From assembly GCF_048403405.1 (NCBI RefSeq), contig NZ_CP183129.1: a stretch of DNA of 64,000 nt, one strand, 5' to 3'. The notes beneath the pieces were generated by a model. The model saw only the letters and a program-made list of their open reading frames with translations. It was not told where the DNA came from and did not search any database. Both the position numbers and the translations under genes were made by a program. Source of the DNA: Escherichia coli. GTDB lineage: Bacteria; Pseudomonadota; Gammaproteobacteria; Enterobacterales; Enterobacteriaceae. Positions 2,999 to 3,917 of the stretch are shown piece after piece (position 1 is the first letter of the stretch; the number at the start of each line of letters is the position of its first letter).

Positions 2999-3917
2999 GA
3001 ATCTTGACCTTTTTTGCTGTTATCGCCACTCCCTGCCGTGGAAGTCAGCTTAGAACAATGTACTCCCCCAGGACGGCGTTTTGAAGGTCTGCAGAATAAG
3101 ATTTTGCCAGAGGGGAAGACTCGATTGTGCTGTTAATAACTTAATAATGGCAAAATAATGAGGTGTATATGCTTAGTAATTAATGTTATGTAGTGAATTG
3201 TTCTGATTCTTAATTGTGAGCGTGGTTTTTTTATCTGTAAGATAATTGTTTGAAAATGCCTCGTTTAAGAATTCACTAATGAATCGTGATGATGATATTT
3301 CCGCATTACGGAGAGTTTAACAGCGTGATGATTTCCGAGGTGTCGTAATGGGTGCAAGGTGTGAAACTATTGTTAAGCGGGATTAATGTATGAGGATGAT
3401 GCTAATTAATTATTATTTAATATTCAAAAAGGTTTTGTTGTGCTTATTAATAATAGAAGATTACTTTGCCTAACATAACATAACTTTGCATCAGATAATT
3501 CGCAATGACCCTTATAAATAAAAGGTTTTTGGGGTAAAATGCTCGCATAAATGACGGATCCCTGCTCTTGATGCCGCCTCACCATTGCTGTTTGTACGTG
3601 TTCGCGTATGACCAGCGATGCTGCACGAGAGTGGAACAAGGACTCACATTTACATTTATACAAACACGCGCATGTCATAAATACAAAAGAGTGAGTAACT
3701 TAATAGATATGCGATTCCTGAAGATATATTCTGTGATCTACTTCAGGCATTATAACGGAACAATGTGAGTCGCTTTTTTAGTGCAACTCATATGCATTTT
3801 TACTTTCGTCCGGGTTCCGGATGAAACTGCCAGGGAGGCACATTACAAATGGAATTGCTTGTTTGTGTGTGCACAGCATTAACCAGCTCAGTATGAGCCG
3901 CCAGTAAGTGATAATAT

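Follow-up and report, generated by a model that had tools for sequence, protein, structure and literature searches.

The 919-bp interval between alaA and lrhA in this Escherichia coli genome is, with a probability of roughly 0.85, the known divergent control region of the two genes and consists of three parts. In the first, a sigma-70 promoter adjoining alaA gives rise to a 52-nt leader that opens with a conserved hairpin. The second, AT-rich DNA of about 496 bp without genes, carries conserved upstream blocks for each promoter, and its role would most likely be the binding of regulatory proteins, of which Lrp is the best documented. In the third, a sigma-70 promoter provides lrhA with a 371-nt leader that is bound by Hfq. 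Small RNAs, namely UhpU, ArcZ and RprA, would pair with the conserved last ~80 nt of this leader, near the ribosome-binding site; pairing would lower LrhA synthesis and cause the mRNA to be processed or to decay, and the changed level of LrhA would tune flhDC (motility), fim and RpoS.

LrhA stands above flhDC (motility), type 1 fimbriae and RpoS and, according to recent work, CRISPR-Cas; this makes the region that determines its level relevant to lifestyle switching and virulence. Because the main logic, a long leader bound by Hfq and targeted by UhpU, ArcZ and RprA, has been published before, no new kind of element is described. Added here are a base-level map in window coordinates (Table 1), the restriction of conservation in Enterobacteriaceae to four short blocks with a constant promoter-to-promoter distance, and a 5'-terminal hairpin with an invariant loop in the alaA mRNA. 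The blocks, their spacing and the hairpin are concrete targets for work on the far-upstream control of lrhA.

Organization and composition of the interval

The window is the whole stretch of E. coli DNA analyzed, 64,000 nucleotides long. It contains alaA as a 405-aa ORF at 1781..2998 (minus strand) and lrhA as a 312-aa ORF at 3918..4856 (plus strand), separated by a gene-free divergent gap at 2999..3917. A very large divergent interval had been claimed here by a sequence-only reading of the window, and its coordinates and length (919 bp) proved exact: the gap is the largest of the 41 intergenic gaps of the window (median 78 bp), followed by the lrhA-nuoA gap with 628 bp. The K-12 MG1655 counterpart (2406642..2407560) is also 919 bp long and carries no annotated feature. 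The interval is 100% identical to that of strain 4621, and a few SNPs separate it from K-12. The gap is real but already known, and the alaA-lrhA control region of E. coli has been described before, since Shimada 2014 already includes the "920 bp-long lrhA-alaA" spacer among the long spacers that have multiple factors and peaks of RpoD holoenzyme. A summary of the features is shown in Table 1.

Table 1. Features of the alaA-lrhA interval in window coordinates
Feature	Position	Strand	Description
alaA leader	2999..3050	-	52 nt
Conserved hairpin, 5' end of alaA mRNA	3025..3049	-	nt +2..+26; loop ACGGCA 3039..3034
alaA sigma-70 promoter	3057..3085	-	-35 TTCAAA 3085..3080; 17-bp spacer; -10 TACATT 3062..3057
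DNA between the two starts	3051..3546	.	496 bp; starts 497 bp apart
Conserved block CAAAATCTTATTCTG	3092..3106	-	-42..-56 of alaA; pattern scan, 2 mismatches to Lrp consensus
AT-rich, poorly conserved spacer	3107..3358	.	G+C about 0.32; no gene or RNA detected
Two conserved blocks, GTGTGAAAnTAnTGTTAAG..ATTAATG and AATTAATTnTTATTTAnTATT	3359..3423	.	-188..-124 of lrhA
Conserved block CAGATAATTCGCAAT, candidate operator	3492..3506	+	-55..-41 of lrhA; 60-80% per base
lrhA sigma-70 promoter	3512..3540	+	-35 TTATAA 3512..3517; 17-bp spacer; -10 TAAAAT 3535..3540
lrhA leader	3547..3917	+	371 nt
Predicted stem-loop	3584..3620	+	MFE fold; mapped 3' end 6 nt on, at 3626
RBS-proximal part of lrhA leader	3839..3917	+	identity 0.61-0.71
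Elements in 3839..3917	3851..3860; 3868; 3871..3878		GGAAUUGCUU; 3' end; GCACAGCA
Elements in 3839..3917	3899..3907; 3908..3912		UhpU site CGCCAGUAA; SD GUGAU
Conserved blocks	2999..3098; 3359..3423; 3479..3540; 3839..3917		MAFFT alignment

The G+C content of the interval is 0.383; the coding DNA of the window has 0.527 and its remaining intergenic DNA 0.416. Marked AT-richness is confined to the core at 3100..3500 (0.319). A/T tracts of at least 4 nt number 14, against 11.7 +/- 3.1 in shuffled sequences, and are not in excess. Of the earlier description as strongly AT-rich with many A/T tracts, the first part applies to the core and the second is overstated. Repeats and tandem repeats in the interval were limited to short chance matches.

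Several other features of the window were recorded. The RefSeq annotation of the identical strain lists a frameshifted elaD pseudogene at 22543..23766, an ISNCY transposase beside a truncated ORF at 48477..49622, and an IS1B that abuts a LysR-family regulator gene at 57483..58180. In the lrhA-nuoA gap (4857..5484) a very strong "orphan" Term-seq 3' end, K-12 2405082(-), corresponds to window 5477, which is 8 nt before the nuoA ATG and within the 128-nt nuoA leader.

Conservation across genomes

Of 5,426 complete E. coli genomes, 5,425 carry the interval. When species-representative genomes were scanned, 80 loci with LrhA relatives were obtained; in 77 of these, from other Enterobacteriaceae species, alaA lies divergently upstream of lrhA at a distance of 764-1140 bp (median 944). 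Profiling of conservation across Enterobacteriaceae, which the sequence-only reading had proposed as a check, was carried out with a MAFFT alignment projected on the window; it resolved four conserved blocks, the remainder being near-random. At q25-q75 of 78 species, 466-476 bp separate one -10 hexamer from the other. As a sign of something special this constancy is weakened by the control gap lrhA-nuoA, which is even more constant in length (625-636 bp in 74 species); the constant spacer length argues for functional regulatory DNA and not for anything unusual.

These lengths also bear on the proposal that most of the spacer is functionless filler, retained by chance between two ordinary promoters. 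The identity of 3107..3358 to other genera stays within 0.25-0.45 and no motif, RNA or ORF was found there, as filler would predict; yet bacterial genomes show a general deletion bias, despite which both the interval and the distance between its promoters have kept their lengths, and insertions in the interval give phenotypes. Filler is an improbable explanation.

Two E. coli genomes carry rearrangements at this locus. In strain 503025 the spacer has received an IS1, flanked by a target duplication of 9 bp (3376..3384), inside a conserved block and ~165 bp upstream of the lrhA start. In strain SCPM-O-B-12142 the match to the interval stops at 3165 and is followed by IS1 and then by elaD fragments; lrhA and the entire nuo operon are apparently deleted.

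The alaA promoter, leader and 5' hairpin

The supplement of Kim 2012 (PMC3415461) gives yfbQ/alaA a transcription start site (TSS) with a 52-nt UTR and a 51-mer that ends ...GTACATTGTTCTAA. The yfbQ/alaA 51-mer (ending ...GAGTACATTGTTCTAA) maps the start to the A at 3050 on the minus strand, in agreement with the position of the promoter. The -35 and -10 hexamers are near-invariant in 78 species, and the sequence of the spacer between them is variable. A Shine-Dalgarno sequence, AAGG, is located ~11 nt ahead of the ATG. A long leader for alaA, considered in the sequence-only reading, is contradicted by the 52-nt leader and the promoter adjoining the gene.

The 12-mer TTCCACGGCAGG of the hairpin at the 5' end of this leader is present exactly in 73 of the 80 species loci, and the loop ACGGCA and the upper stem are invariant over 65 distinct Enterobacteriaceae sequences. 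Pairing is retained in 91.9% of cells, compared with 30-74% for slid controls; the lower stem shows compensatory changes, with four pairs altered on both sides, and one pair occurs as A-U, G-C and G-U with counts of 42, 12 and 8. The predicted stability of the hairpin is unremarkable (z = -0.46). It is absent from Rfam, and no description was found in the literature searched.

Stem-loops of the ompA type at the 5' terminus stabilize mRNA. The alaA leader has the features of such a 5'-terminal stem-loop, as the hairpin starts at +2, a single nucleotide away from the mapped 5' end, and covariation preserves its stem. The simplest reading would be protection of the 5' end. Unlike in pure end protection of the ompA type, the sequence of loop and upper stem is invariant; since end protection alone would not require this, the invariant loop may leave room for a specific partner. 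A 9-mer shared with the alaS autoregulatory region, GTGGCGATA, was considered as a motif of the alaA leader; it lies in the non-conserved part and is probably due to chance.

The lrhA promoter and leader

A TSS for lrhA with a 371-nt leader is likewise listed in the supplement of Kim 2012 (PMC3415461), where the 51-mer ending ...GGGGTAAAATGCTCGGA puts the start at window 3547. The same +1 and a "371 nt 5' UTR" are given by Melamed 2023, and the lrhA part of their primer SM079, ATAAATGACGGATCCCTGCT / ATAAATGACGG, begins at 3547. The -10 hexamer sits 6 nt upstream of the mapped start and reads TAAGAT, TAGGAT or TAAAAT in 68 of 78 species; CTTATAAAT is conserved. Both promoters stand out in the comparison of 78 species, their hexamers being the best-conserved bases around each start, and the leaders deduced from the conserved -10 of lrhA are 340-593 nt long in all 78. 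For both genes, the hexamers that Shimada 2014 picked from the sequence do not coincide with the footprinted promoters.

Control of lrhA through a long leader had been anticipated from the sequence. This is borne out: the leader measures 371 nt and binds Hfq, and UhpU, ArcZ and RprA repress it. Transcripts with only short leaders had been named as the finding that would speak against that anticipation; the leader of alaA is short (52 nt), that of lrhA is not.

The lrhA leader has a predicted fold with z = -2.16 relative to shuffled sequences. Across genera only its last ~80 nt are conserved, with GGAAUUGCUU, GCACAGCA and AGUGA near-invariant. Two 3' ends within the leader are recorded by Term-seq (Adams 2021 supplement): K-12 2406933(-), corresponding to window 3626, delimits an 80-nt 5' fragment, and K-12 2406691(-), corresponding to window 3868, is not Rho-dependent. 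No U-tract follows the predicted stem-loop ahead of 3626, which is not an intrinsic terminator.

Two sequence resemblances were noted in the leader. Three GGA motifs occur within 3818..3860 (plus strand), and the GGA in GGAAUUGCUU is 80-90% conserved, lies in a predicted loop and is reminiscent of CsrA sites; a literature search found no paper linking lrhA to CsrA CLIP data. The stretches 3584..3605 and 3854..3870 (plus strand) resemble, in the same sense, the seed of RprA/McaS (AUUGCUGUGUGUA), and a mapped 3' end follows shortly after each of them (at 3626 and 3868). The likeness at 3584..3605 is marginal (reached in 19-20 of 500 shuffles) and this first copy is not conserved, and it was set aside.

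Small RNAs and Hfq on the lrhA leader

An Hfq-bound RNA termed "ig-lrhA-alaA" was found by co-immunoprecipitation and Northern blots, with bands of ~150 and ~350 nt, and was assigned to an lrhA transcript of ~1.5 kb (Bilusic 2014). Species of ~1.5 kb and ~1.25 kb accumulate in the absence of Hfq (Bilusic 2014). In the RIL-seq data of Melamed 2023, the leader forms chimeras with UhpU, ArcZ, RprA and McaS; an lrhA-lacZ fusion is repressed by UhpU, ArcZ and RprA, and McaS is without effect. Pairing of UhpU is proven by the compensatory pair UhpU-M1/lrhA-M1, which restores repression (Melamed 2023). The lrhA-M1 gBlock carries C3902 changed to G, and UhpU-M1 the matching G changed to C within UhpU ACUGG; C3902 places the UhpU site at about 3899..3907, directly upstream of the SD sequence GUGAU. 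GCACAGCA is complementary to UGCUGUG of RprA/McaS. The sites assigned to RprA/McaS and to ArcZ are putative; in a windowed duplex scan of ArcZ, RprA, McaS and UhpU against the leader, the best energies were no better than with shuffled leaders.

The fragment from the TSS to 3868 is 322 nt long and may correspond to the ~350-nt band of Bilusic 2014. The remainder from 3627 to 4887 is 1,261 nt, and a cut near 3626 could thus account for the ~1.25-kb species of the same study. A transcript length of 1,341 nt is expected from the 371-nt leader; because the ~1.5 kb of Bilusic 2014 somewhat exceeds it, a weaker start upstream of 3547 may exist in addition. The Hfq-bound leader fragments 3547..3626 and 3547..3868 may also act in trans, as sponges of McaS, RprA or ArcZ.

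The DNA between the two starts

The conserved block at 3092..3106 lies directly upstream of the alaA promoter, and a further match to the Lrp consensus is present at 3191..3205; 2 of the 13 matches in the window thus fall in 1.4% of its length. Lrp ChIP-seq identified lrhA as a direct Lrp-activated target, and among nucleoid-type proteins Lrp is the one backed by direct evidence. From the pattern match, Lrp is the putative protein bound at 3092..3106.

Identity of 3107..3358 to other species is 0.25-0.47, and the anchor-to-anchor length of 3063..3358 is 287-301 bp at q10-q90. For 3107..3358 (about 250-300 bp) the designation as protein-binding DNA is presumptive, because identity between genera is near-random and no site is assigned there. 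The two blocks at 3359..3423 have an identity of 0.61, with per-base conservation of up to 80-90%, and their distance to the lrhA -10 is kept: the segment 3359..3534 is nearly fixed in length (174-178 bp at q10-q90, sd 2.7). From this conservation they are presumed to be upstream protein-binding sites. An RcsAB box was considered for the candidate operator at 3492..3506 and rejected, as the resemblance is loose (more than three mismatches) and no box within three mismatches occurs anywhere in the interval.

Insertions in this DNA are reported to affect expression or motility. In a TraDIS study of ST131 E. coli, Tn5 insertions in the interval caused hypermotility; ihfA and ihfB mutants were hypermotile like lrhA mutants, an effect not shown there to act via lrhA. 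In Serratia sp. ATCC 39006, an insertion 825 bp upstream of pigU overexpresses the regulator, more reads were seen upstream of the insertion, and "regulatory elements, such as sRNAs" were suggested (Smith 2023). Smith 2023 cites an earlier E. coli study with the same overexpression effect and calls the mechanism unknown. Overexpression of pigU also raised alaA (Smith 2023). The two E. coli starts, 497 bp apart, depart from the classical geometry of LysR-type divergent promoters; some regulation of the neighboring gene is possible without that geometry, because alaA rose with pigU overexpression in Serratia.

The sequence-only reading had viewed the region as a typical substrate of H-NS, Fis and IHF. 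If the spacer were mainly curved, silenced DNA bound by H-NS, IHF or Fis, it would act as a distance-dependent architectural silencer of lrhA, and the low G+C content of the core, the raised lrhA/pigU expression after insertions distant from the lrhA promoter, the conserved distance between the promoters and the phenotype of the ihfA and ihfB mutants would be accommodated. However, no IHF consensus was found by pattern scan in 2999..3917, the A/T tracts are not above what composition predicts, and in the table of Shimada 2014 the H-NS column is blank for lrhA-alaA and marked for neighboring entries. Nor does constant length point specifically to a silencer, because the lrhA-nuoA gap is even more length-conserved. 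A silencer of this type is therefore considered doubtful, and the sequence-only view of the nucleoid proteins found no support in these tests.

Tentatively, the ~470-bp AT-rich DNA between the promoters, conserved in length but divergent in sequence, might be a cis architectural element, possibly a scaffold for Lrp or another nucleoid protein, that restrains lrhA and couples it to alaA. Such an element would explain the overexpression of lrhA and pigU by insertions ~825 bp upstream, close to the alaA promoter, in E. coli and Serratia.

Open reading frames, RNA families and terminators

Comparison with K-12, E. albertii or Citrobacter shows stops or a lost start in every ORF of at least 30 aa in the interval, and none was found repeatedly at the same position or strand in 78 species; the earlier statement that the interval holds no convincing ORF is upheld by this comparison. 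The remaining candidates for a small protein or a regulatory uORF are short ORFs such as those of 28 aa (3821..3907) and 15 aa (3849..3896) in the lrhA leader and of 27 aa (3390..3473) in the core. AGGGAGG precedes the ATG of the 15-aa ORF by 10 nt, and the 28-aa ORF stops 10 nt before the lrhA ATG. However, neither the ATG at 3821 nor that at 3849 is conserved, and the latter is replaced in other genera by AAATGG, AAAGGG, AGAAGG or AAACGG at this position; both leader ORFs were rejected. With unconserved candidate ATGs and no terminator, the leader also lacks the features of a leader-peptide attenuator or of uORF control, and a coding function of the interval is extremely unlikely.

An unannotated small RNA had also been proposed from the sequence. 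An independent sRNA gene that controls lrhA from the AT-rich core (about 3100..3500) would agree with the extra reads upstream of the 825-bp insertion and the sRNA suggested by Smith 2023, with the overexpression of lrhA/pigU by far-upstream insertions, and with a promoter-like match at 3470..3499 (plus strand). Yet promoter-like matches in the interval number 2, against 3.4 expected from shuffles, and no intrinsic terminator was found in 2999..3917. The accessible part of the Term-seq record contains no 3' end in K-12 2407000..2407599 (window 2960..3559), 3' ends being located only inside the lrhA leader. The Rfam scan suggested in the sequence-only reading was performed with Rfam 15 and gave nothing at gathering score in 2999..3917 or in 14 orthologous loci from other species, and the sequence identity of the core is near random. 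The "ig-lrhA-alaA" RNA of Bilusic 2014 is the lrhA leader itself. The ~496 bp between the two starts, over half of the interval, are thus without terminator, Rfam family or, in the accessible record, Term-seq 3' end, and an independent sRNA is very unlikely. The supplements of Cappable-seq and SMRT-Cappable-seq hold no entries for the alaA-lrhA locus. The Rfam near-match STnc170 (20.4 bits, where the gathering score is 80; E = 0.047) was dismissed as chance; STnc170, listed with SL1458, probably belongs to a different Salmonella locus.

Comparison with known systems

The divergent control region described here corresponds to the published K-12 lrhA-alaA spacer and leader (Kim 2012; Shimada 2014; Bilusic 2014; Melamed 2023), with the same locus, a length of 919-920 bp, the same starts and the same leader. 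There is no difference in kind.

Long 5' leaders of rpoS, csgD and flhDC serve as sRNA hubs ahead of master regulators, and on that of rpoS ArcZ and RprA act as activators. The lrhA leader, with a distant mapped start, a conserved promoter and non-coding sequence, is a long leader of this kind: it is several hundred nt long, binds Hfq, and is targeted near the ribosome-binding site by several sRNAs that set the level of a global regulator. In contrast to the rpoS leader, the sRNAs with an effect on lrhA all repress, and, set against the leaders of rpoS, csgD and flhDC, only the last ~80 nt are conserved across genera.

Other long divergent spacers named by Shimada 2014 are csgD-csgB (755 bp) and nanC-fimB (~1456 bp), which like lrhA-alaA are located ahead of a regulator of stress or lifestyle and have RpoD peaks and many regulators. 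They are marked for H-NS or have many mapped factors, whereas lrhA-alaA has no H-NS mark and few mapped sites.

An orthologous divergent arrangement is found at alaA-pigU of Serratia sp. ATCC 39006 and at the hexA, pecT and rovM loci of Enterobacterales. The sequence of their intervals is not alignable with that of E. coli. ArcZ is reported to control PecT and HexA, and at alaA-pigU, as in E. coli, insertions in the interval lead to overexpression of the regulator, here the LrhA homologue.
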